Notes under the pieces: generated by a model
Database searches by the model: none
The model's input: only the letters and a program-made list of their open reading frames with translations
What the model was told of the DNA's origin: nothing
Made by a program: the position numbers and the translations under genes
DNA from: a virus
Lineage: Duplodnaviria; Caudoviricetes
Length of the DNA: 64,000 nucleotides
IMG/VR virus record: IMGVR_UViG_3300032070_000007
Span: 2,892-66,891 of that record
Direction: 5' to 3' (one strand)
In this document: in pieces, positions 3,349-60,050 of the stretch
How the letters are laid out: each line of letters begins with the position of its first letter
Numbering within the stretch: the stretch's first letter is position 1

Positions 3349-3788
3349 TGCCTTTTGATTGGCCGAAAGGTCCTGTACCAGTTTCAAAACCACTACCTCC
3401 ACAATTTAACAAAGAGTCTACTCATCAATGTGCTGGCTGTTTCTACAACTACCGACATCCACACTTTAGAGTTGGCACTGATTGGAATAGCACGACAACT
3501 ATTGTTTGGGAATGCAACCTCCGAATCATGCGAACAACTATGCTCAAAAAGTACGATCATAGAACAAGAATAGTGCTCGAGTACCGTAACTTTTACGAGG
3601 AGAGATTCGGAAAAACTCCTTGCCCCGAAAAGAGTATCTTAAAGAAATCGAAGTGGACTGTTGACTTCAAGTCAACCTCATCTCTTAATAGAGCGTCAAG
3701 AGAATTCGAGCATTGGTTACATAGAAATAAACTTGAGGAGTATCAGAAGAAAAGAAACTTCAACATAACACCAGAACCGAAAGAATAA
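3348..3788 (+). CDS. hypothetical protein
   Basis: GGAGG RBS; CxxC motif. Confidence 0.6.
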   Translation: MPFDWPKGPVPVSKPLPPQFNKESTHQCAGCFYNYRHPHFRVGTDWNSTTTIVWECNLRIMRTTMLKKYDHRTRIVLEYRNFYEERFGKTPCPEKSILKKSKWTVDFKSTSSLNRASREFEHWLHRNKLEEYQKKRNFNITPEPKE

Positions 3789-3801
3789 AAGGAGGAATAA
3801 A

Positions 3802-4161
3802 ATGCCTATAAGTAAGGATAAATTCAAGCAGGGAGAACTCTACACCATCATGCGTTTAGAAGATGTGATGGAACCCGACCAAGCATACCAAATAAAGGAG
3901 ATAGCAGTACTAGTTCGCCGTACACCTATGAGAATAGGGTATAAACTCCGTGAACTCGAAAAAGACGGTAAGGCTGAGTGTAGGCGAGTGGACGGTAAAA
4001 TAGTTTGGGCGTTGACGGAGACTGCTTATCTAGAAGGGACTGTTAAGGCAGATAAACAGAAGTTGAGAATTAGAGGAAGGCCAGTTAAGGAAGCTAGAAT
4101 GAGGGGCAAGAAGGGACAGAAACCCACCTACGTTGGTAACAAAAAAACTAAACCTACTTGA
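3802..4161 (+). CDS. winged-helix DNA-binding protein
   Basis: AYQIKEIAVLVRRTPMRIGYKLRELEKDGKAECRRVDGKIVW wHTH pattern; GGAGG RBS. Confidence 0.7.
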   Translation: MPISKDKFKQGELYTIMRLEDVMEPDQAYQIKEIAVLVRRTPMRIGYKLRELEKDGKAECRRVDGKIVWALTETAYLEGTVKADKQKLRIRGRPVKEARMRGKKGQKPTYVGNKKTKPT

Positions 4162-4165
4162 CAAC

Positions 4166-4183
4166 TAAATTTTTATATATTTA
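4166..4183 (+). promoter_or_regulatory. archaeal TATA box
   Basis: TAAATTTTATATATTT upstream of the 4228 gene; a similar box lies at about 4549-4561. Confidence 0.55.
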
Positions 4184-4227
4184 CTCATGGTCATTTGAAT
4201 GATGACTAAGCTCTAGGGGAGGTGAAA

Positions 4228-4461
4228 ATGGAAATGTGTCCAATAAGTGCCGACGAGTTTGAAAAGGGCAAGAGTGCAACCAAGAAGGACCTCACGGAGG
4301 TTCTAGAAGAGGGCAAAGGGTATACCACGAAGGAGGTAGCAGACCTCATCGGACGATCGTGGGGCATAGCAAAGAACATCCTGAAGGCTGCAGTCGAAGA
4401 AGGCACAATAGAGGTAAAGAAAGTTGGAAGAAGTATCTACTGGCGCCTGAAGCCTCAGTAG
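4228..4461 (+). CDS. small winged-helix DNA-binding protein (paralog family)
   Basis: GYTTKEVADLIGRSW...LKAAVEEGTIEVKKVGRSIYW; GGAGGTGA RBS. Confidence 0.75.
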   Translation: MEMCPISADEFEKGKSATKKDLTEVLEEGKGYTTKEVADLIGRSWGIAKNILKAAVEEGTIEVKKVGRSIYWRLKPQ

Positions 4462-4615
4462 ACTTCCAGGTTTCTTTCCCCTCCTTCTTTCCTCTATTTT
4501 TGTTATAAAGTGGAATATGTGGTCAACAGGGAAACTGCTTGCCACATGTTTTATATATTTATGTACCCATAATTGACCATAAAGCCTTTTGGCCATAAAA
4601 TCTAGAGGGGTGTTT

Positions 4616-4828
4616 ATGGGAGTATCGGAAACGATTTCAAGCGAAGAGCTGGATAACGAGATAGTTTTTTTTGCACAGATACGAGTTAACAATCAAATCA
4701 CAATACCAAAAGAGTGTATGGAGGCAAAGAAACTGAAACCAGGAGACGTGATAGCTATTGCTGTTCTGAAGATAGTTGACGGCACAGTGACTTGGAGTAA
4801 CATGAAGTCACGACTACAGGGGAGGTGA
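4616..4828 (+). CDS. AbrB/MazE/SpoVT-family DNA-binding protein
   Basis: IRVNNQITIPKECMEAKKLKPGDVI is the AbrB-type signature. Confidence 0.8.
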   Translation: MGVSETISSEELDNEIVFFAQIRVNNQITIPKECMEAKKLKPGDVIAIAVLKIVDGTVTWSNMKSRLQGR

Positions 4829-4833
4829 AAAGA

Positions 4834-5946
4834 ATGAGTAAAATGTCAGAATTTACTACCAAGGTTCTTAGTGAGTGGGCAACTCAACTTGGTAGAGAAC
4901 CAGCCGAGCTTACGAAGATGTATAATGATGCGTATGAGATTCTAGCAAAGATGGGCAAGCCAGCGGATCAATTAGAAGAGATGGCAAAAACCAGAGTTAG
5001 GTCACAGTTGAGAAACGAATTCGCATCACCTGCAGTTTCATTCCGGGGCCGTATATTAGCGAAGAGCGACGCATTTAACGTAAATGCGAATGCTTGGGAA
5101 GAAGCTGCGGAAATGAATAAGAGTCCAGAAAGGCAACAGTGGATCGATCAGAGGGCAATCAACGAAGCAGGCCAACCACTCGATATGAGAGAGATTTTCT
5201 CGAAATCCAAGAAGAAGAATCCGAACTTCGGAAAGATCCTACCCAAAGAGAATTTCCTCGCGAACGTTTTTGGAGTCTTTTTGTCAGCTAAAGGAGACCC
5301 GCTTCCAGGCAAAGTAACGTTGAGTGGCAAGAAGGCGAAGATTGTGGTTCCAGTAGATGTGCCAGTGCAGGTTAGGCTAAATGATAAGTCAGAGAAAGGT
5401 GCAACCTATCGAACACTTTCATCAGGTACTCCGACAGAATTCAAGCCGATACAGGATCCAGACATTCCTGACGCAGAAACGCTGATAACGATGTATTGTG
5501 AGCAGTTCTTTACAACCCTAAAGCACTTAGAGTCAGTACATCAGGCGTTCATTCCAGCAAATGCAACTAAGCCAGATCCTACTAGGATTACAGTTGTAGA
5601 AGCGGAATTGATTAGCTTGGATAGTGAGGTTAATCCAAAATCTCACAACTACAGAATGGTCATAGGCGACGAGAGTTTAGGGTTTACGGAAAAGGAAAGA
5701 CGTGGTACAACTGTATGGGTTTCAGAGGCATTGTATCCTGCTGTCAAAGATGCAGGGCGAGGTACAAGGATGTACGTGATAGGTCAGACAACACAGCCAC
5801 AGACTAGCAGAGACTTTACAACAGGCGAGACAGTGAACAAGCCGGGAGACGTAGGTCTCAATGCAATGGGCATATTCGTCAAGAAAGGTTGGTTGATGCC
5901 AAAGGATGAGCAGCCGTTTGAGGAAACTGCGGAGGTTGAAGCGTAA
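4834..5946 (+). CDS. putative OB-fold ssDNA-binding protein
   Basis: Beta-rich segments, acidic C-terminal tail (DEQPFEETAEVEA), near an AAA ATPase; function inferred, not recognised with certainty. Confidence 0.4.
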   Translation: MSKMSEFTTKVLSEWATQLGREPAELTKMYNDAYEILAKMGKPADQLEEMAKTRVRSQLRNEFASPAVSFRGRILAKSDAFNVNANAWEEAAEMNKSPERQQWIDQRAINEAGQPLDMREIFSKSKKKNPNFGKILPKENFLANVFGVFLSAKGDPLPGKVTLSGKKAKIVVPVDVPVQVRLNDKSEKGATYRTLSSGTPTEFKPIQDPDIPDAETLITMYCEQFFTTLKHLESVHQAFIPANATKPDPTRITVVEAELISLDSEVNPKSHNYRMVIGDESLGFTEKERRGTTVWVSEALYPAVKDAGRGTRMYVIGQTTQPQTSRDFTTGETVNKPGDVGLNAMGIFVKKGWLMPKDEQPFEETAEVEA

Positions 5947-6302
5947 TGTCAACTCATTTGGAACAAATAAAATCCCTTCTTTCTTTAACGGGTCAAGTTC
6001 ATAGTGAGGAGTTCCCGTATGAACGAATATATGTGTATTCTATAGTTACTCCTACAGGCGAGCTAGTTATAGGAGCACTTGGTAAGAAAGGAACTCGTGT
6101 TGTCGATGTAGCAGTACTTCCTGAATTTAGAAAGGAAGGAGTGGCTTCTGCATTAATCAAAATTGCGGAAGTTGACACTGCCTATGTGGTAAGTGAGGAA
6201 GCTGAAAACTTCTGGAGTCACATAGGTTGGTATTTTGTCTGTCCCATTATGGACAAGGAAGTTGAAGTGAAAGTATACTGTAAAAAGGGGAAGATCGTTT
6301 GA
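5946..6302 (+). CDS. GNAT-family N-acetyltransferase
   Basis: Acetyl-CoA motif A (VDVAVLPEFRKEGVASALI) and motif B (AENFWSHIGW). Confidence 0.8.
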   Translation: MSTHLEQIKSLLSLTGQVHSEEFPYERIYVYSIVTPTGELVIGALGKKGTRVVDVAVLPEFRKEGVASALIKIAEVDTAYVVSEEAENFWSHIGWYFVCPIMDKEVEVKVYCKKGKIV

Positions 6303-6715
6303 GCAATACTGAGGGAATAAAAGCTGCTGTTGGAGTAAGCTATAGGAAACATATTAGTGAGTACAGTAAGGAGCTTGTAGCGATACCGTTTGGTTTTCCG
6401 GGCAAACGCGAATTAGTGGAGCATGAAACTGATGAGCTAACATCTGTATGTCCGGTGACTGGATTGCCAGATTTCTATCATATGGTTATCAGTTACTTGC
6501 CGAAGGATTTGCTGGTAGAGCTGAAGTCATTAAAGTTCTACCTCATGCAATTCAGAGACGTTGGCATTTTGCACGAGGATTTGGCGCAGAAGATATTACA
6601 AGACTTTATTGCAGTAGTACATCCGGAAGTTTGTACAGTCGACTTGACAGCAGCTTCAAGAGGAGGAATAAGTACGCACGTAGTTGCGAGATATCCAGAG
6701 CCAGGAGGTGAGTAA
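6299..6715 (+). CDS. queF: preQ0 nitrile reductase QueF (preQ1 synthase)
   Basis: TSVCPVTGLPDF catalytic Cys/Asp, QueF motif VELKSLKFYL, HE, RGGI. Confidence 0.9.
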   Translation: MSNTEGIKAAVGVSYRKHISEYSKELVAIPFGFPGKRELVEHETDELTSVCPVTGLPDFYHMVISYLPKDLLVELKSLKFYLMQFRDVGILHEDLAQKILQDFIAVVHPEVCTVDLTAASRGGISTHVVARYPEPGGE

Positions 6716-6716
6716 T

Positions 6717-7502
6717 ATGCCTTGGGAAAAGGGACTGAATAAAGACAAACCCCCAGCTAAGACTAAGGAACAGTTGTTTACTGATATTCATGAGCTTGCA
6801 AAGAAGGCAGGTATAAAAATTGGAGTTCACGGAGTTGCTGAATCTGGTAAAACTCACTTCTGTTGCTCCTCACCACCGCCAGTCTATATACTAGAGACTG
6901 ATGATGGAGCTGCACAACTTGCGAACAATTTCCCATCCAAGAACATTAAGGTACTTAACTGCTATGTAACGACAGGAGACCCGCAGACGGAATGTAAGGC
7001 CTCATTAGACATGCTGAAAGAAGCGTTGGTTGCATTGAGTGACTTGAATGAGGGAACTATTTGCATTGATAGCGGTACAGATCTTTGGGAGTGGATTGGA
7101 GGAACTCTACGTTTGGAGATTTTGAAAGTTGACTTGGCAGCTAGAGTGGCCCCTGCTGACTATAAGTGGGCGAATGCGGAGTATCGGTCGATAATCATGA
7201 AGTGTCGGGCGATTAATGCTAACTTCGTCATTACGGCAATGGATGGGGAAGTATTCAGGGATGCTAAGTTGACGCCCACGAATGTGTATAAGGCAGAGTG
7301 GCAGAAGTGGACGCCAAGGTGGTTGGATTGCCAAATACGGTTGATGAAGGAAGAAACAAAGACTGGATATACGTTTAGGGCGTTCATTGAGAAGTTCAGG
7401 CATCACAGGTTGACAAATAGGGACTTTCTGAACTTAGACTTTGATGCATTATATGCAGTGCTTAAACCGTATCTAGTGAAACCGCCGGAGAGTGCAACGT
7501 AA
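6717..7502 (+). CDS. AAA ATPase (AAA_24/Sak4-like recombination protein)
   Basis: Walker A GVAESGKT, Walker B TICIDS; GGAGGTGA RBS before ATG 6717. Confidence 0.75.
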   Translation: MPWEKGLNKDKPPAKTKEQLFTDIHELAKKAGIKIGVHGVAESGKTHFCCSSPPPVYILETDDGAAQLANNFPSKNIKVLNCYVTTGDPQTECKASLDMLKEALVALSDLNEGTICIDSGTDLWEWIGGTLRLEILKVDLAARVAPADYKWANAEYRSIIMKCRAINANFVITAMDGEVFRDAKLTPTNVYKAEWQKWTPRWLDCQIRLMKEETKTGYTFRAFIEKFRHHRLTNRDFLNLDFDALYAVLKPYLVKPPESAT

Positions 7503-7754
7503 TGTTGAACAACGTACCTAGAAATCTTTGGTCGGTTGTAACATTCGGTCTCTTTCATTTTCAAGAAATTGAACGATTAGCAACAGTAATTTACAGGATC
7601 AAAATAGACGACAGAACTATGGGGACTACGAAATGAGAGCTAGAGCTGCGTGTGGACATATAGTGGAGATTCCATGCAACTGGAATATTAACGGAAGATG
7701 TGGAGCTGATACTTCACCATGCATAATAATCTCGTTAGTAAGGAGTGATCAAAA

Positions 7755-8120
7755 GTGACAGATGATGAGTTTGATGAGAAGTTGGGAATTACTGCAGATG
7801 CTATGATGAACTCGTTAGCTGCAAAGGCAGTACAAAAGGCTTGTAAAGAGGTACTTATGAAGGTACTTCGAAAGCATAATCTGCGTAAGGATAGTTGGCA
7901 TAGGACAACAAGTGTATTCTCAATGGGAGAGTTAGTACATAACAAGATGCACCGATTAAAAGAACTGTACCCTAAGATAGCGTTAGGAGGTTCAGAGGTA
8001 TTGAAAGAAGTCAATGATGAACTGGATGATATCATTGCATACAGTGCATTTCAGAAGTATGTCCTGAATGTCGATAAGTTGAGTAACCCTTACACAACAC
8101 CGGAGAGTGACACTGTTTAA
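7755..8120 (+). CDS. nucleotide-modification-associated all-alpha NTP pyrophosphatase-like protein (DUF1599/Nmad1-like)
   Basis: K..N...DSW...NKMHRL...ELDDIIAY pattern. Confidence 0.55.
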   Translation: MTDDEFDEKLGITADAMMNSLAAKAVQKACKEVLMKVLRKHNLRKDSWHRTTSVFSMGELVHNKMHRLKELYPKIALGGSEVLKEVNDELDDIIAYSAFQKYVLNVDKLSNPYTTPESDTV

Positions 8121-8198
8121 CTCCCGTAGAACGGTTAACTGCTTGATACCGGAGGCAGCATTAAGCAGGTTCGGATTCACCTCCTTTCCTGGCTCCTA

Positions 8199-8408
8199 TT
8201 GGTATCCTTTGACCCTACAGAGGGATTAGCAGTGGGTACAGGTTTAGTAGGAAGATTCGAGTACACTCCGGATAAAAAGGGCAAGTGTGAGAAGGGGCAT
8301 GATATGATGAAAATCGAGAGTGTGAAGTTGTTCTCGATAGGAAGGGATTGGACTGTGGAAGGATATTTTTACTGTCCAACCTGTAAACTTATTTACCAAA
8401 AGATGTAA
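8199..8408 (+). CDS. small Zn-ribbon protein
   Basis: CEKGH...CPTC; true start may be the GTG at 8232. Confidence 0.5.
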   Translation: MVSFDPTEGLAVGTGLVGRFEYTPDKKGKCEKGHDMMKIESVKLFSIGRDWTVEGYFYCPTCKLIYQKM

Positions 8409-8428
8409 TAGAGGTGAGAAGAGTGCAA

Positions 8429-8830
8429 ATGAAGAATATAACAAAAGTCCTTCACTTTGATGCGGCACACTATCTTGACAAAACATTTGGTAAATGTCAA
8501 AATCTACACGGTCATCGCTACTTCGTAGAGAACATAGTTGTAGGATTCGATGGTATTGTTGATTTCGGACTGATAAAGAAAGCTGTTGATAGTTTTGATC
8601 ACTGTTTGCTGATACCAGGAAACCACGAGGCATTTTGGAAGAATGTAGATACTTTAGCTAAACAATCCGACCTTCCTTTCATCATTAAGACAGTTGTTCT
8701 TAGTAGCATGTCTCTTGTTGAAAACATTGCCCAGGATTTAGCAATGCAGATATCAGCGATTCCGGGAGTACGTTCTGTTAGCTTTGACCTATATGAAGGA
8801 CATAACCAAGGTGTTCATGTTGATACTTAA
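8429..8830 (+). CDS. queD: 6-carboxy-5,6,7,8-tetrahydropterin synthase QueD
   Basis: FDAAH, CQNLHGHRY, VDFG, FDH, ENIA, LYE motifs. Confidence 0.92.
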   Translation: MKNITKVLHFDAAHYLDKTFGKCQNLHGHRYFVENIVVGFDGIVDFGLIKKAVDSFDHCLLIPGNHEAFWKNVDTLAKQSDLPFIIKTVVLSSMSLVENIAQDLAMQISAIPGVRSVSFDLYEGHNQGVHVDT

Positions 8831-8899
8831 TCTGTTGAGACGAAAGTCTCACTCTTTCCCCATATATTCCAGATAATAGTTAACATAGAGGAATTGAGA

Positions 8900-9031
8900 A
8901 TGTCGAGTAAGTCTAAGAGTAAGTGCTGTCCTCATTGTGGCACGGATCTTAGTGACTATACTCTTCCTTCAGATGAATATTGGAAAACTCGTTGTCCATA
9001 TTGTGGAGGTAAGTTGGATGCTAGTAAATGA
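8900..9031 (+). CDS. Zn-ribbon microprotein (43 aa, not in ORF track)
   Basis: MSSKSKSKCCPHCG...RCPYCGGKLDASK*, overlapping the queE start. Confidence 0.6.
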   Translation: MSSKSKSKCCPHCGTDLSDYTLPSDEYWKTRCPYCGGKLDASK

Positions 9032-9641
9032 AATCTTTGAAAGTGTTCAGGGAGAAGGTACTTTTCTAGGATACCCTGCACTCTTTATACGCCTACAGGG
9101 ATGCAATTTGAGTTGTCGGTTCTGTGACACAAAGTACGCGTTAGGGGAAGGTGGAATGGATGTTAAACTTGATAGCTTGGTTGCGTTAATCAGAAACTCC
9201 CCTTCCTATCATGTAGTGTTTACAGGAGGAGAACCCTTACTTCAACAGAAGGAAATTAGTGAGGTAATAAGAGAGGTTAATAGAGGTAAGTTTTATGAAG
9301 TAGAAACTAACGGAACAATCAAGCCTAATATTGAGTTTTTAGTTCACCTTTTCACAGTATCACCGAAAGATGATTTCCAAATTTCACCTAGCTTTTTCGA
9401 GATGCCGGGAGTGGTTTTTAAGTTCGTGGTCGATAAAGAGGAGGATTTGGAGAAAATCGAGAACTTCGTAGACTTACATGATATTACAAGACCGATATAC
9501 TTGATGCCACAAGCTACTACATTGTTGGAGCATAAGAAGAAGTTGCCGATGCTTTTTGAGTTCGTGAAAGTGCATCAAGGGCATTATAGAATTACGCCCA
9601 GGTTGCAGATCTTAGCCTACGGTAAGAGGAAGGGAGTTTAA
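9018..9641 (+). CDS. queE: 7-carboxy-7-deazaguanine synthase QueE (radical SAM)
   Basis: EIFESVQGEG, CNLSCRFCDT (CxxxCxxC), TGGEP, ETNG, TVSPK, LMPQ, PRLQ. Confidence 0.95.
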   Translation: MLVNEIFESVQGEGTFLGYPALFIRLQGCNLSCRFCDTKYALGEGGMDVKLDSLVALIRNSPSYHVVFTGGEPLLQQKEISEVIREVNRGKFYEVETNGTIKPNIEFLVHLFTVSPKDDFQISPSFFEMPGVVFKFVVDKEEDLEKIENFVDLHDITRPIYLMPQATTLLEHKKKLPMLFEFVKVHQGHYRITPRLQILAYGKRKGV

Positions 9642-11198: not shown

Positions 11199-11797
11199 TG
11201 GAAGTCATTCTACTACGCTTTAGTCTCGATCCAGAACTACTTTGCACGCAAGCAATGTTAGGATGCCAAAGTACAAAAGCGGCGTTTGAAATTGAACCTG
11301 ATGCGGAACGTATCAATAGGATGATGACAATGGCAGTTACTACAGATGATGCTTCAGTCTTGGAACATGCTTCGTTTACCTTTAGTGTCAAAGGAATCAG
11401 TCGAGCATGCAGCCATCAGCTAGTGAGACATAGGATAGCAAGTTATAGTCAGCAGTCACAAAGACATGTGAATCCAACGAAGGTTCCTAATTGGTACTGT
11501 ACTGCTGAAACTATTGAGAAGTCAGGTCACGGTCCGGAGTTTCAGCAACTCATGAACTTATGTGCCAAAGAATACCAATCTTTGATTGATTCTGGTGTTC
11601 CGGAAGAAGACGCACGCTTCGTTCTACCAAATGCTTGCAAAACAAACATCGTTATAACCATGAACTGCCGTGAACTACGTCATTTCTTCAAGCTACGGTG
11701 CGCTAAGAAGGCACAGTGGGAGATCCGCGAAATGGCGAATAGAATGCTCGATCTGTGTATACAAAAAGCACCAACAATCTTTGGAGGCCTAAGATGA
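11198..11797 (+). CDS. thyX: flavin-dependent thymidylate synthase ThyX
   Basis: SVLEHASFTF, SRACSHQLVRHRIASYSQQSQR, EDARFVLP, AQWEIR. Confidence 0.96.
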   Translation: MEVILLRFSLDPELLCTQAMLGCQSTKAAFEIEPDAERINRMMTMAVTTDDASVLEHASFTFSVKGISRACSHQLVRHRIASYSQQSQRHVNPTKVPNWYCTAETIEKSGHGPEFQQLMNLCAKEYQSLIDSGVPEEDARFVLPNACKTNIVITMNCRELRHFFKLRCAKKAQWEIREMANRMLDLCIQKAPTIFGGLR

Positions 11798-12477
11798 AGG
11801 ACGTTCAAGAAGAGCAAGCTGAGGATCTAGGAATAATGGCTGGTATCACTAGTTACAGCATAGTGATAAAGTCCTCTAAGTGGACACTCTTCATTGAGTT
11901 GGAAGTGAAGGTTCCGATACTCAATAAACGGGGAGCACATATGAGCAGGTTGATATTCCCAGAGACGGTGAAGTGTGAGAGTGTTGAGCAGTTTATTAAC
12001 GATGCAAAGAAGTTGATAAAGGAAAAAACTGGCGTTTACCCCTACATCAAAATGGTGTTTAAGTTTCCGTGGAAGGATCAGTTTCCAACTATTATCGTCG
12101 AGAACTATATTGCCATAGGAAACGAATACACGTATATTATGAAAGGAATAACTGCGTGTCCTTGTTCAAAGGAAAGCATTGGTATAGGACATATGCAGAA
12201 GTGTGAGTTGAAGATAAAGATAAATGCTAAACTTCCACACCCTAAGTTTGAGGACATATTTAGGTTAATGGAAGGTTGCTTTTCTGCTTCGTTGACGGAG
12301 AAGCTAAAGAGAGATGAGGAAGCTGCTAAGATTAAGGAAGCTCAGGATAATGCAAAGTTTGTCGAAGATGTCGTAAGAAATGCTGTTAAGAGTATTCCTA
12401 ACATTAGGTACGTGAGAGCAGAGTCAGATGAAAGTATTCACAGTCATAAGGCAGTAGCGGAGTGGTGGAAGAGTTGA
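11794..12477 (+). CDS. folE2: GTP cyclohydrolase type IB (FolE2/MptA family)
   Basis: MKDVQ, RGAHMSRL, TACPCS, HMQ, KFVEDVVR, ESIHSH. Confidence 0.88.
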   Translation: MKDVQEEQAEDLGIMAGITSYSIVIKSSKWTLFIELEVKVPILNKRGAHMSRLIFPETVKCESVEQFINDAKKLIKEKTGVYPYIKMVFKFPWKDQFPTIIVENYIAIGNEYTYIMKGITACPCSKESIGIGHMQKCELKIKINAKLPHPKFEDIFRLMEGCFSASLTEKLKRDEEAAKIKEAQDNAKFVEDVVRNAVKSIPNIRYVRAESDESIHSHKAVAEWWKS

Positions 12478-12834: not shown

Positions 12835-13557
12835 ATGGAAGTTGTAGTCACAAAATCTCAACGTTCAACGGTTGTAACACCAACATTTAGTAAACCTTCA
12901 ACAAAAGTTGTAATGTTATTGAGTGGGGGAGTTGACTCTGCAACTCTAGCATACTACTTGATGAAACAGCATCAAGAGTTGCATGCATTGACAGTTGATT
13001 ATGGGCAAAAGCACTATAAGGAAATTCAGGCAGCACAAGATATTGCTGATGCAGTAGGAATCAGTCAGAGGATATTAGATTTGAGTACGTTACAACCTCT
13101 GCTTAAAAGTGCATTGACTACTAATGATCCAATACCAGAAGGTCATTATACAGCTGAGAACCAGAAGTTAACAGTCGTACCAAATAGGAATGCAATACTT
13201 TTGAACATCGCTGCTGGCTATGCAATAAGCATAGGTGCTAATACAGTTGCGTACGCAGCACATAAGAATGATAGGGCAATTTATCCTGACTGCAGGCCGG
13301 AATTTGTAAGTGCATTACAAGCAGCATTGGATGTCGGGACGGATGCAGATTTACTGGTATACGCTCCATTCATCAATATGACAAAGGCACAAATTGTGGA
13401 ACTAGGTATAACATTGAACGTTCCCTATGAATTAACCTGGTCGTGCTATAAGGGTGAAGAGAGGGCGTGTGGCAGGTGTGGAACGTGTGTGGAAAGGCTG
13501 GAGGCATTTAAGTTGAATGGCGTGAAGGATCTGATAGAGTATGAGGGAGTAATATGA
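12835..13557 (+). CDS. queC: 7-cyano-7-deazaguanine synthase QueC
   Basis: LLSGGVDS, DYGQKH, VPNRN, YPDCRPEF, TWSCY...CGRCGTC. Confidence 0.97.
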   Translation: MEVVVTKSQRSTVVTPTFSKPSTKVVMLLSGGVDSATLAYYLMKQHQELHALTVDYGQKHYKEIQAAQDIADAVGISQRILDLSTLQPLLKSALTTNDPIPEGHYTAENQKLTVVPNRNAILLNIAAGYAISIGANTVAYAAHKNDRAIYPDCRPEFVSALQAALDVGTDADLLVYAPFINMTKAQIVELGITLNVPYELTWSCYKGEERACGRCGTCVERLEAFKLNGVKDLIEYEGVI

Positions 13558-14423: not shown

Positions 14424-15023
14424 GTGACCCACTTGACCAAGTACGATTTAGTAACAGAGGCAGTATGGTTAGCTTGTGCTATAGATGGGGAAGGTTCAGT
14501 TACTATATACTCTACTGAAAATGGCCACTCACAACAAATAACAGTAGCTAATACTAAATCAGAATTCTTGGACCGTGCTTACAGTATACTCTCCAAATTA
14601 GGTGCACAACATATTATAAGATATGAAACATGCGTCGTAATTAACTATCGTGAAGATTTATTGGTAGTTTTACCACAAATACTTCCTCATCTGGTTATTG
14701 AAAGTAAAATACAGGCTGCAAAGGCTATCATGGCACATTGTAAAGATTCCTTGCAAAAAGAGAGTCAAAAAATAAACGAATATAAGGAACTTTTTGACGC
14801 AATAACGAAACATCCTAATATAACAATTCCTGAACTTAAACAAGAACTTATTTGGTTAACAAGGAATCGTCTTTATAAATTATCTAACCTTGAACAAAAA
14901 GGTTATGTAAGGGGAGTAGTAAATCTTGAGAGTCTGAGACACACTCAATGGATCATTACTGGTAAAGAGTTTGATGAAATTGACTTCCTAAACCGAAAAA
15001 GGGTGAGGAAAGTTGAAATATGA
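14424..15023 (+). CDS. free-standing LAGLIDADG homing endonuclease with C-terminal wHTH-like region
   Basis: WLACAIDGEGSV and ITVANTKSEFLD; TTTATATATT at about 14391. Confidence 0.75.
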   Translation: MTHLTKYDLVTEAVWLACAIDGEGSVTIYSTENGHSQQITVANTKSEFLDRAYSILSKLGAQHIIRYETCVVINYREDLLVVLPQILPHLVIESKIQAAKAIMAHCKDSLQKESQKINEYKELFDAITKHPNITIPELKQELIWLTRNRLYKLSNLEQKGYVRGVVNLESLRHTQWIITGKEFDEIDFLNRKRVRKVEI

Positions 15024-57982: not shown

Positions 57983-58061
57983 ATTTCATTAATGTGAGTG
58001 GTAAACTATTTAAAATGTGTGGTTTAGGTGTTTATTCGGGGAGTATTAGGGGTACTTGTAG

Positions 58062-58128
58062 GAAACGGTTCCACGGTTAAACGGTTAATGAAATTTATAT
58101 ATGTAGTACAACCGTTTATCCGTTTTTT
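58062..58128. promoter_or_regulatory. second ACGGTT/AACCGTT repeat element with TATA core
   Basis: ACGGTT three times, then TTTATATATGTAGT, then AACCGTTTATCCGTTTT. Confidence 0.5.
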
Positions 58129-58283
58129 CTGAAATTTTTTGCCCAAAAATTCTATAGTACCCCAGCACTGCAACATAGGTCAACGCAAGTCCGTAACCAA
58201 TACTTCCTAACTTTACTCTGGGAATTCCGCAGAGTAAATTCTCGTAGAGATGACATATTCCGTCATTTTTATATATTAAATAT

Positions 58284-58430
58284 TAAGATTCCTTACTTAA
58301 GTATTACGACTTAAGATTACGGAGTTTATATTAAATATTACGACTTATGACGTAAGACTTGAGTATTAAGATAAAGGACTGTATATTAAATATTAAGACT
58401 TAAGTATTGTTAATTAAGTCTTAAGATTAC
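58284..58430. repeat. TAAGAC/TACGAC/CTTAAG short-repeat array (left)
   Basis: Multiple direct and inverted copies. Confidence 0.6.
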
Positions 58431-58585
58431 GGAAGTAATATTGTATAGTAAGTAATAGGAGTTAGGAAAGTATATAAATAAATTAATATTGAATAGTAAG
58501 TATTAAGATATAAAAGTTTAAATGGAAATGTAAATTTTAATATTATAAAAAGTTTAAAATTAAGGAAAGTTTAAATGTAAATGTA

Positions 58586-58604
58586 GAAAAGATTTATATA
58601 TAAG
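58586..58604 (+). promoter_or_regulatory. BRE-TATA promoter of the C-free operon
   Basis: GAAAAGATTTATATATAAG about 45 nt upstream of ATG 58640. Confidence 0.7.
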
Positions 58605-58639
58605 TTTGTATATTATATAATTAAGGAAAGTGAAAAAAA

Positions 58640-58876
58640 ATGAAAATAAGTGAAAAAGTTTGGGAAAGTGGAAAAAGTTTGAATGGAAATGAGAAAAAGG
58701 AAAAAATATTGGAGGTTTTGGTAAAGGAAGGAATATGTGATATTGAGGAGATAAGGAAAGTAGGAAAAGAAAAGTGGATATGGGGAAGTTTGAAAAGTTT
58801 GGAAGAAGAAGGATTAGTGGAAAGTAGAAAAGTAGGAAAGAAGAAGTTTTATAGGATAAAGGGGGTGGAAAATTGA
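58640..58876 (+). CDS. small winged-helix protein encoded without C
   Basis: Aligns by eye with the 59805 and 61894 paralogs (WESG...KILE...KW..G.LK.L.E.G.VE..K.GKK..YR). Confidence 0.8.
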   Translation: MKISEKVWESGKSLNGNEKKEKILEVLVKEGICDIEEIRKVGKEKWIWGSLKSLEEEGLVESRKVGKKKFYRIKGVEN

Positions 58877-59196
58877 AATTTGAGAATTGGAGTGATAAGA
58901 GAATAAAAGAGGAAAATAGGAAAAGAGAAGGAATAAAGGAGGGTATGAAAATGAAAAGTTGGAAAGAAGTAAAAGAAGAATGTAAGGAAAATGGAGTAGA
59001 TATGAATAGGTTGAATTGGGTAGATAAAAGAAAAGGAGGAAGAAGAAGGAAAGTTGTAGGAATAGGAGGAAGTGAGAAAGAAAAAGAGATAATGGAAAGA
59101 AATGGATTTAGGAAATATAAAAGTGTGGAAGTAGGAATGAGTAGAGGATATGGATATTGGTGTTGGGTAAGGTTTGAAAAGGAGGTGGAAAAATGA
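58873..59196 (+). CDS. basic hypothetical protein encoded without C
   Basis: GGGGGTGG RBS, TTG start, coupled to both neighbours. Confidence 0.7.
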   Translation: MKFENWSDKRIKEENRKREGIKEGMKMKSWKEVKEECKENGVDMNRLNWVDKRKGGRRRKVVGIGGSEKEKEIMERNGFRKYKSVEVGMSRGYGYWCWVRFEKEVEK

Positions 59197-59396
59197 GTTA
59201 TAAAAGTTGGGGAGGAAGAAAAATAGTTAGGAGAAAAGATGTGAAAGGAAAATGTGGAGTTTGTGGAAAAGAGGAAGTGGAAATGATAGAATTGGAAAGG
59301 AAAGAAGGAGAAAGTGAGGAAATAGGATTAGTGATGGAAGTTTGTAAGAGTTGTAAGTATGTAATAGATTGGGGATTAGGAAAAGAGGATTGGTAG
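59193..59396 (+). CDS. Zn-ribbon protein encoded without C
   Basis: GGAGGTGG RBS; CGVCG...CKSC. Confidence 0.75.
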   Translation: MSYKSWGGRKIVRRKDVKGKCGVCGKEEVEMIELERKEGESEEIGLVMEVCKSCKYVIDWGLGKEDW

Positions 59397-59416
59397 AAGG
59401 ATATTAAGTAAGAAAG

Positions 59417-59426
59417 TTTTTTTTTT
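59417..59426 (+). terminator. oligo-T terminator
   Basis: T10 run 20 nt after the last stop of the operon. Confidence 0.7.
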
Positions 59427-59454
59427 GTAAGTTTGGATTTTGGAAATTTAGTAT

Positions 59455-59670
59455 CGTAAATCGTACGACTTAAGTCTTACTTCTTAATACTTCATACAAC
59501 TCACCTCACCCTCCCCAAATCTTAAGACTTAAGACTTCAGAAAGTGTCGTAAGTCTTAAGACTCAAGTCTTAATATACATCTTTCCAAAGTTCCTCTCTG
59601 TTTCCATTATAACGGAAAGTTCCAATAATATATAAATACTTTCCCTTGGTATCGTAAGTCTTACGACACG
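59455..59670. repeat. TAAGAC/GTCTTA palindromic array (right)
   Basis: AGTCTTAAGACT, TAAGACTCAAGTCTTA, TCGTAAGTCTTACGA; further copies at 60196-60260. Confidence 0.65.
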
Positions 59671-59745
59671 GAAGTTTACACTTTTATATAAACTTTTAAA
59701 TGTTTAGGAGTAAGGAAAGTTAAAAAGTTTACACTTTTATGTTGA

Positions 59746-59762
59746 CAAAATTTATATACTAG
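59746..59762 (+). promoter_or_regulatory. BRE-TATA promoter
   Basis: CAAAATTTATATACT upstream of 59805; similar CAAAGTTTATATATT at about 60714. Confidence 0.65.
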
Positions 59763-59804
59763 AAAGTATATATTATAAGTGGAAATAAAAGGAGGTGAAA
59801 AGGA

Positions 59805-60050
59805 ATGCAAATAAATGCGGAAGAATGGGAAGCGGGAACTGCAGTTTCGGCAAGCGAAAATAAGGAAGCAATTCTGAAAGCGTTTGCAAAAGTGAAGGGC
59901 AAAGGAATGGATATGAAGGAAATTGGAAAGCTAAGCGGACTAAAGTGGCCATATGGAGCAGTAAAGGCTTTAGTGGAAGATGGAAAGCTGGAACGCAAGC
60001 AGTTCGGAAAGAAGTTTGGGTATAGGATGGTAGAAGTTAAGGAGGAATAA
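59805..60050 (+). CDS. small winged-helix protein (paralog)
   Basis: GGAGGTGA RBS; GMDMKEIGKLSGLKW...VKALVEDGKLERKQFGKKFGY. Confidence 0.8.
   Translation: MQINAEEWEAGTAVSASENKEAILKAFAKVKGKGMDMKEIGKLSGLKWPYGAVKALVEDGKLERKQFGKKFGYRMVEVKEE

Follow-up and report, generated by a model that had tools for sequence, protein, structure and literature searches.

Eight 7-deazaguanine derivatives have been reported in phage and viral DNA, and the amine of preQ1 (7-aminomethyl-7-deazaguanine) is described as the target of two tailoring enzymes: DpdM, which methylates it, and DpdN, which is predicted to formylate it and whose product (fdPreQ1) fully replaces guanine (PMC10516641). Each of these two known decorations, methyl and formyl, was discovered through an extra gene in the cluster. 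A chemical precedent for acetylation comes from phage PaMx11, in which the GNAT-family protein gp48 is reported to convert 5-aminomethyl-deoxyuridine in DNA to its acetylated form with acetyl-CoA (PMC8989533). Here we describe a 64,000-nucleotide stretch of viral DNA (the window; positions 2892-66891 of record IMGVR_UViG_3300032070_000007, which has 66,891 bases and is rated complete) in which the gene for a 118-residue GNAT-fold protein lies directly upstream of queF. We consider the chances evenly balanced that this protein N-acylates the aminomethyl amine of preQ1, probably by acetylation, to give an undescribed DNA base.

The candidate resembles DpdN in its setting and in its proposed chemistry. 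The DpdN gene likewise adjoins genes for DpdA3, FolE, QueD, QueE and QueC, as well as for QueF, and in both cases the proposed reaction turns an amine into an amide (PMC10516641); in the immuto phage DpdN stands between DpdA3 and QueF, in the order DpdA3-x-DpdN-Tmk-QueF. DpdN is, however, a PurN-type formyltransferase (PF00551) with a folate donor, no relation in sequence between it and the window protein was found (phmmer, no hit), and its product is a formamide as against the acetamide proposed here. DpdM (DUF3109/YkgJ), described as a methyltransferase of dPreQ1, that is, of preQ1 in DNA (PMC10516641), tailors the same amine as we propose for the GNAT. Its gene lies beside QueF or DpdA in phage Pan1 and, in our survey (loci given by L numbers), in L017, L095, L127, L136, L141 and L164, with DpdA3 as the neighbour in the DpdA3- and QueF-carrying loci L127, L136, L141 and L164, and it is variably present among close relatives. 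Its fold, with a metal-binding Cys cluster, is unrelated to that of the window protein, as is its methylation chemistry. PaMx11 gp48 is, like the window protein, a small GNAT (140 residues) encoded in a phage DNA-hypermodification cluster, and its reported acetylation of an aminomethyl group on a DNA base is the precedent for the reaction that we propose, but its target is the C5 substituent of a pyrimidine, in the thymidine pathway. It resembles the window family weakly (hhalign probability 44%, E 2.4e-4, 55 columns); it is closer to the GNATs of other que clusters described below (hhalign 96%, E 3.5e-9), which is still the level of the general GNAT core.

The window encodes FolE2, QueD, QueE, QueC and QueF in one module together with a 252-residue DpdA3-like protein. 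The latter has no Pfam hit, that of the tRNA-guanine transglycosylase (TGT) family included. A tblastn comparison with the DpdA of the immuto phage gave 24% identity over 82% of the query (E 5e-4), and the immuto protein is classed as DpdA3 and linked to complete replacement of guanine by formyl-dPreQ1 (PMC10516641); the authors of that study report that DpdA3 was not functional in the E. coli model they used. The AlphaFold2 (AF2) model of the 252-residue protein has a predicted local distance difference test (pLDDT) score of 91.5, and its best Foldseek match in the PDB is 7ui4, 'DNA preQ0 insertase DpdA' (E 1.5e-7), followed by TGTs. Homology and a TGT-like fold thus place the protein in the DpdA family, its assignment to the DpdA3 subfamily coming solely from the weak sequence match. 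By sequence and structural model, then, the phage is equipped for putting preQ1 into DNA. Homologs of DpdM and DpdN were sought among the window's open reading frames (ORFs) of at least 50 residues, with no hits (phmmer, 13 queries, E<=0.1).

QueF is the NADPH-dependent preQ0 reductase and its product is preQ1. The window protein belongs to the unimodular type by its score (112.7 bits against a cutoff of 86.9 for TIGR03139, the QueF-II equivalog of NCBIfam; E 1.2e-22 for PF14489), its catalytic cysteine (Cys51, in SVCPVTGLPD) and its NADPH motif, and both of these sites are conserved across 24 phage QueF sequences. Its TTG start is supported by the QueF of related loci, which aligns from the same residue and begins with ATG. 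An earlier note on this DNA had pointed to the reductase motif ELKSLKFY, which indeed lies at E74-Y81 and matches the described form E(S/L)K(S/A)hK(L/Y)(Y/F/W) (PMC10516641), and to an overlap of the GNAT stop with the queF start (TTGA), which is also present: the junction reads ...cgTTTGAgc..., with TTG at 6299-6301 and TGA at 6300-6302, and the two ORFs share 4 nucleotides (nt). What did not survive is the use of this overlap as a ground for linking the GNAT to preQ1, since an overlap of exactly 4 nt is shared by 12 of the window's 66 pairs of neighbouring ORFs on one strand. A complex prediction for QueF and the GNAT reached a best score of 0.21 (mark 0.32) and speaks neither for nor against a physical association.

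Several lines of evidence support the view that the 118-residue protein is a minimal GNAT-fold protein. Its AF2 model, built from 8 homologs, has a pLDDT of 85.4 and a predicted template modelling (TM) score of 0.77, and the Foldseek matches listed from the PDB, to rank 48, are all GNAT-type acetyltransferases (12 at E<=1e-3, the best at 1.3e-4; TM by query 0.4-0.6). Structural comparison with GNAT clusters of the ESM Atlas gave TM values by query of 0.67-0.77, and PF13508 and/or PF13673 are precomputed on three close homologs. The alpha/beta fold is accompanied by motif A, whose consensus is Q/R-x-x-G-x-G/A and which appears here as R62-K-E-G65-V-A67, a segment that we take to be the acetyl-CoA pyrophosphate-binding loop; it is kept in the family, with R62 and G65 at least 90% conserved in 20 sequences. 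Among 8 homologs, down to 58% identity, motif A (R62, G65, A/G67) is preserved along with 48 invariant columns, and the key positions are retained across 20 family members at 33-81% identity. Members come from metagenomes alone, and the representative clusters found (see below) are all of 74-138 residues, except for one 3303-residue protein that matches in 9 stretches. Longer, fused proteins sought with the family profile were not found, which is weak evidence. The more distant members include P0009, on a 35.9-kb contig, and P0012, on a 60.8-kb contig.

In four related metagenome loci the GNAT gene again lies directly upstream of QueF, with GNAT identities of 61-64% and a spacing that is either an overlap or 3 nt. 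The order 373-residue protein, GNAT, QueF, Sak4-like ATPase is kept in the three of these four that cover it, L003 beginning at the GNAT. Because the four loci are syntenic throughout, they show that the GNAT gene is real and maintained, and a functional tie to queF does not follow from them. Neither the window region (megablast) nor the GNAT (tblastn) had a match in 50,697 phage records, and the same held for a distant family member (tblastn). Scans of viral contigs with the window GNAT family, with the window QueF alone and with the 373-residue protein alone gave no confirmed relatives, although such scans may omit the record of this genome and those of close ones. The only hit from a scan of genome contigs, L006 in a Planctomycetota metagenome-assembled genome, was dropped as an unrelated bacterial GNAT.

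The evidence that most strengthens the proposal comes from other que clusters. We compared 80 QueF-centred IMG/VR loci (the best 80 of 383 relatives among at least 595 pattern matches) with a control set of 80 QueC-centred loci (the best 80 of 483 relatives), 9 of them with a QueF inside 6 kb and the other 71 without; ORFs were called, and que and dpdA genes were annotated by phmmer against annotated references. The clusters of the QueF set contain a second group of GNATs, of 144-178 residues and above Pfam cutoffs, in the arrangements DpdA-QueF-GNAT-QueC-FolE-QueD-QueE (L064/65, L085/86), GNAT-QueF-QueC-QueD-QueE-FolE (L035, L045/46, L055), QueF-GNAT-QueC (L047), GNAT-DpdA-x-QueF (L040) and DpdA-GNAT-GNAT-x-QueF (L082). 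A 233-residue protein with a GNAT match (L157:1901-2599; PF00583, 23.0 bits against 20.7) has a stop that overlaps the QueF start by 4 nt, an overlap of GNAT and queF also found in L064, L085 and L047. Overall, 12 of 82 loci with QueF have a Pfam-supported GNAT within the cluster, as against none of 71 QueC loci lacking QueF (Fisher p=4.3e-4); by lineages at 70% identity the figures are 6 of 33 with QueF and 0 of 48 without (p=0.0034). Seven loci of the QueF set without a called QueF ORF, none with a GNAT hit, were dropped from this count; with them it becomes 12/89. In a Pfam tally of QueF-set ORFs of 90-250 residues lying at most two genes from a que or dpdA gene (194 ORFs, clustered at 60% identity to 133), Acetyltransf_1 ranked second with 6 of the 133 representatives, behind Vut_1 (YhhQ-type transporter) with 10. 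Two GNAT hidden Markov models (HMMs) found nothing in the control set at E<=0.01, and the one GNAT-family member among the families listed in the control Pfam tallies (195 representatives) was the QueF-adjacent L157 protein. Left out of these counts was L032, where a 105-residue match to a GNAT HMM lies 4.6 kb from QueF and has no Pfam match. A single-sequence hhalign screen for GNATs was not used for counting, being too insensitive (the true L157 GNAT scored only E 0.008).

The association also holds in the reverse direction for one GNAT subgroup, which occurs in 17 IMG/VR loci: 15 of them, 14 being one lineage, have it directly beside QueF, and one (the contig of phage vB_DshS-R5C) in the same cluster. 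Near-identical clusters differ in whether they carry the gene, as would be expected of a tailoring enzyme. L085 has a GNAT and L083 has none, at 97.8% QueF identity; L040 has one and L043/L049 do not, at 98% identity. The genus Nanhaivirus offers a comparable series. R26L has the order QueF-x-DpdA-exonuclease and neither a DpdM-type nor a GNAT gene, Pan1 adds a YkgJ (DpdM-type) gene, and R5C adds two small genes after DpdA, one of them annotated as an N-acetyltransferase, with weak Pfam GNAT matches and no significant relation to the window family (hhalign E 0.25). The two R5C products (L008:6977-7604), the annotated 111-residue N-acetyltransferase and the hypothetical protein that precedes it, are alike in their N-terminal halves and look like paralogs in tandem; the first of the pair has no glycine-rich loop. 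On the co-occurrence of GNAT, queF and dpdA across viral genomes, which the earlier note had named as a check, the survey thus places GNATs of other subfamilies in the QueF clusters of several independent phage lineages and found none in the clusters that lack QueF.

Taken together, the full pathway with a DpdA3-like inserter, the absence of DpdM and DpdN, and the recurrence of GNATs in QueF clusters support the acylation of preQ1, and a place for the system in 7-deazaguanine DNA hypermodification with the GNAT as acylating enzyme is plausible from the sequence evidence, the more so for the recurring QueF-specific association. FolE2, QueD, QueE and QueC would convert GTP to preQ0, which QueF would reduce to preQ1; the GNAT would then acylate the 7-aminomethyl primary amine, most probably with acetyl drawn from acetyl-CoA, and the DpdA3-like transglycosylase would exchange guanine in phage DNA for the deazaguanine base. 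We infer the substrate and the donor here from the genes, folds, motifs and association that we observe. The acceptor could be the free base or DNA, because the window GNAT is slightly acidic (isoelectric point 5.6, net charge -3.2) and many GNATs of other que clusters are strongly basic (up to +11.6). The product in DNA would be 7-(acetylamino)methyl-7-deazaguanine, as an amide counterpart to the known derivatives made by DpdN (formyl) and DpdM (methyl), and the modified base would presumably protect against restriction. The idea that this GNAT acetylates the preQ1 amine, first raised in the earlier note, therefore gains from the pathway, the DpdA3-like gene, the lack of DpdM and DpdN and the GNAT-QueF association, loses the overlap argument, and is still a proposal. 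With slightly less than even confidence, we further suggest that GNATs form a third, unrecognised class of 7-deazaguanine tailoring enzymes, recruited repeatedly beside queF in unrelated phages and making acetyl-dPreQ1, a new natural DNA base that in the DpdA3 phage described here may take the place of many guanines. The earlier note's remark that such a base was not known to be described also stands: full-text literature searches turned up neither an acetylated preQ1 base nor a GNAT assigned to a 7-deazaguanine DNA pathway, and the words 'acetyl' and 'GNAT' are absent from the main text of PMC10516641 and PMC6884629, whose supplements may list flanking acetyltransferases.

A number of observations weigh against the acylation of preQ1 by the window protein. 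The genomic context of its family is visible in one lineage only, its own, where conservation is not independent evidence because the whole region is syntenic. At its start the GNAT gene shares 1 nt with the stop of the 373-residue ORF upstream (TAATG), so that it is joined to this neighbour as tightly as to queF. The family is small: 8 close homologs were found, and 1.84 billion proteins yielded 17 representative clusters at E<1e-10. The window protein falls below the Pfam gathering thresholds (PF13508, 24.9 bits against 27; PF00583, 17.6 against 20.7). By our own reading, two elements of the canonical GNAT fold, the first strand and the second helix, are missing from its model. At the position where the GNATs of other que clusters have Tyr (FY), as most GNATs do, the window family has an invariant Trp (W90). 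The similarity between the window family and those other GNATs (hhalign 95%, E 3.8e-8) extends over the GNAT core and is no more than between any two GNAT families, and we therefore take this fold to have been recruited separately in the case of the window GNAT. As for the survey, GNAT detection in the control set used two family-specific HMMs together with Pfam tallies that list 25 of 54 and 25 of 34 families, weak single hits there could be hidden, and a QueF could lie beyond the 6-kb flanks. No que gene lies within 6 kb of the GNAT relative (35% identity) in L109, the remaining locus of the reverse test. Finally, a GNAT gene and queF lie about 5 kb apart in halovirus HVTV-1, and yet dPreQ1 is reported from the DNA of this virus (PMC6884629).

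Many of these points would be accommodated if the substrate were unrelated to preQ1 (for example a protein of the host or the phage, or a small amine such as a polyamine) and the proximity to queF reflected nothing but the dense packing of early and replication modules in phages. Overlapping gene ends are common in this genome, the bond to the 373-residue gene is as close, the window family shows nothing specific in common with the que-cluster GNATs, and L109 shows a relative away from que genes altogether. Moreover, the que genes of the window are scattered through a replication module (Sak4-like, ThyX, PolB, nucleases), so any gene of that module is near a que gene. Dense packing would not, however, lead one to expect GNATs beside QueF in the tight que operons of several lineages and in none of 71 QueF-less clusters, or a window that has DpdA3 and QueF and yet neither DpdM nor DpdN; we judge this explanation unlikely, though the likeliest of the rivals to preQ1 acylation.

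An improbable alternative is that the GNAT does act on preQ1, but in order to control the pool of free base, for example by keeping it away from the host tRNA-guanine transglycosylase or from preQ1-sensing regulation. The association with QueF would fit this equally, the slightly acidic window protein would suit a small molecule better than DNA, and at L035, L045, L055 and L047 there is a GNAT and no DpdA within 5 kb. Set against this are the strongly basic charge that many GNATs of other que clusters have, as enzymes that bind DNA would, the position of the GNAT between DpdA-QueF and QueC in the L064 lineage, and the fact that the known neighbours DpdM and DpdN are described as yielding DNA bases (PMC10516641). 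Least probable of all is a degenerate GNAT fold without transferase activity, serving as a binding or scaffold subunit or having no current role: the short length, sub-threshold Pfam scores, Trp in place of the usual Tyr and missing N-terminal elements would be in keeping with it, but the retained motif A and invariant columns, the conservation of key positions at 33-81% identity and the confidently predicted fold argue otherwise.

If preQ1 is indeed acetylated, a GNAT in the position in which the DpdM and DpdN genes were found predicts a further natural DNA base. It would place a neutral amide in the major groove, which bears on the evasion of restriction enzymes, on recognition by type IV and glycosylase defences, and on the sequencing and enzymology of modified DNA. 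The association also yields a list of testable clusters, among them that of the isolated Dinoroseobacter phage vB_DshS-R5C, which has relatives without the gene in R26L and Pan1.

The genes discussed lie in the left third of the window, a plus-strand module of replication and nucleotide metabolism with the order UvrD-like helicase, 373-residue protein, 118-residue ORF, QueF, Sak4-like ATPase, QueD, QueE, ThyX, FolE2, QueC, 252-residue protein, LAGLIDADG endonuclease, family B polymerase and nucleases; coordinates are collected in the table.

Table. Coordinates in the window of the candidate GNAT gene, its neighbours and the preQ1 pathway genes, with the basis of each assignment.
Feature	Position	Strand	Basis or remark
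373-residue protein, family unassigned	4825..5946	+	No Pfam or PHROG match; stop overlaps GNAT start by 1 nt
Minimal GNAT-fold protein, 118 residues, ATG start; candidate preQ1/dPreQ1 N-acyltransferase	5946..6302	+	Fold, motif A
GNAT motif A codons, R62-K-E-G65-V-A67	6129..6146	+	Sequence; role from general knowledge
Unimodular QueF, 138 residues, TTG start	6299..6715	+	PF14489, TIGR03139, Cys, NADPH motif
QueF Cys51 codon (thioimide-forming cysteine)	6449..6451	+	Invariant in 24/24 aligned phage QueF sequences
QueF NADPH-binding motif ELKSLKFY codons (E74-Y81)	6518..6541	+	Motif as defined in PMC10516641
QueD, PTPS family	8414..8830	+	Family matches
QueE, radical SAM	8937..9641	+	True start probably internal, near 9018
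GTP cyclohydrolase, FolE2 type	11755..12477	+	PF02649
QueC, preQ0 synthase	12835..13557	+	Family matches
DpdA3-like DNA guanine transglycosylase, 252 residues	13616..14374	+	tblastn to immuto phage DpdA; AF2 and Foldseek

Several other features of the window deserve mention. The 373-residue protein has no NCBIfam match either, and its ESM Atlas neighbours are unconvincing (best score 0.83). Between the Sak4-like gene and QueD, a 121-residue ORF (7755-8120, plus strand) matches DUF1599, 'Nucleotide modification associated domain 1', weakly (E 0.0074), and its conservation extends to the related loci, L002-L005. A gene for a free-standing LAGLIDADG-like endonuclease (14424-15023, plus strand) separates the DpdA3-like gene from that of the family B DNA polymerase. 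No Rfam family, the preQ1 riboswitch included, was found in the window, and promoter and terminator signals in 3500-9000 were not above those of shuffled sequence. Farther along, an AT-rich stretch at 58000-60000 (GC 0.316 and GC skew 0.54 in the 2-kb bin) marks the place where minus-strand structural genes give way to plus-strand small ORFs; two repeats lie in it, one of 55 bp (2.8 copies, 58272-58427) and one of 17 bp, and it may be a regulatory or origin region.

The survey loci hold other genes that recur beside QueF. In L031 (3386-4800) and about 20 similar loci, on big phage contigs (for example L034, L036, L038, L044, L050, L052-54, L058, L059 and L067-69), a Vut_1 (YhhQ-type) transporter and a short-chain dehydrogenase (adh_short) immediately precede QueF-QueC-QueD-QueE-FolE, and no DpdA lies within 5 kb; a further role, in tailoring or in the pathway itself, is possible for the dehydrogenase. 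In L028, a 207-residue protein with a partial match to C5 cytosine DNA methylases (4301-4921) stands directly upstream of QueF, and in L035, whose QueF is 88.6% identical, a GNAT occupies this position. Proteins with a ParB N-terminal domain recur beside DpdA or QueF (L064:576-1139, L082:4184-4852 and, in Mufasa8, L012:4145-4849) and number 4, 5 and 6 among the representatives of the three Pfam tallies.

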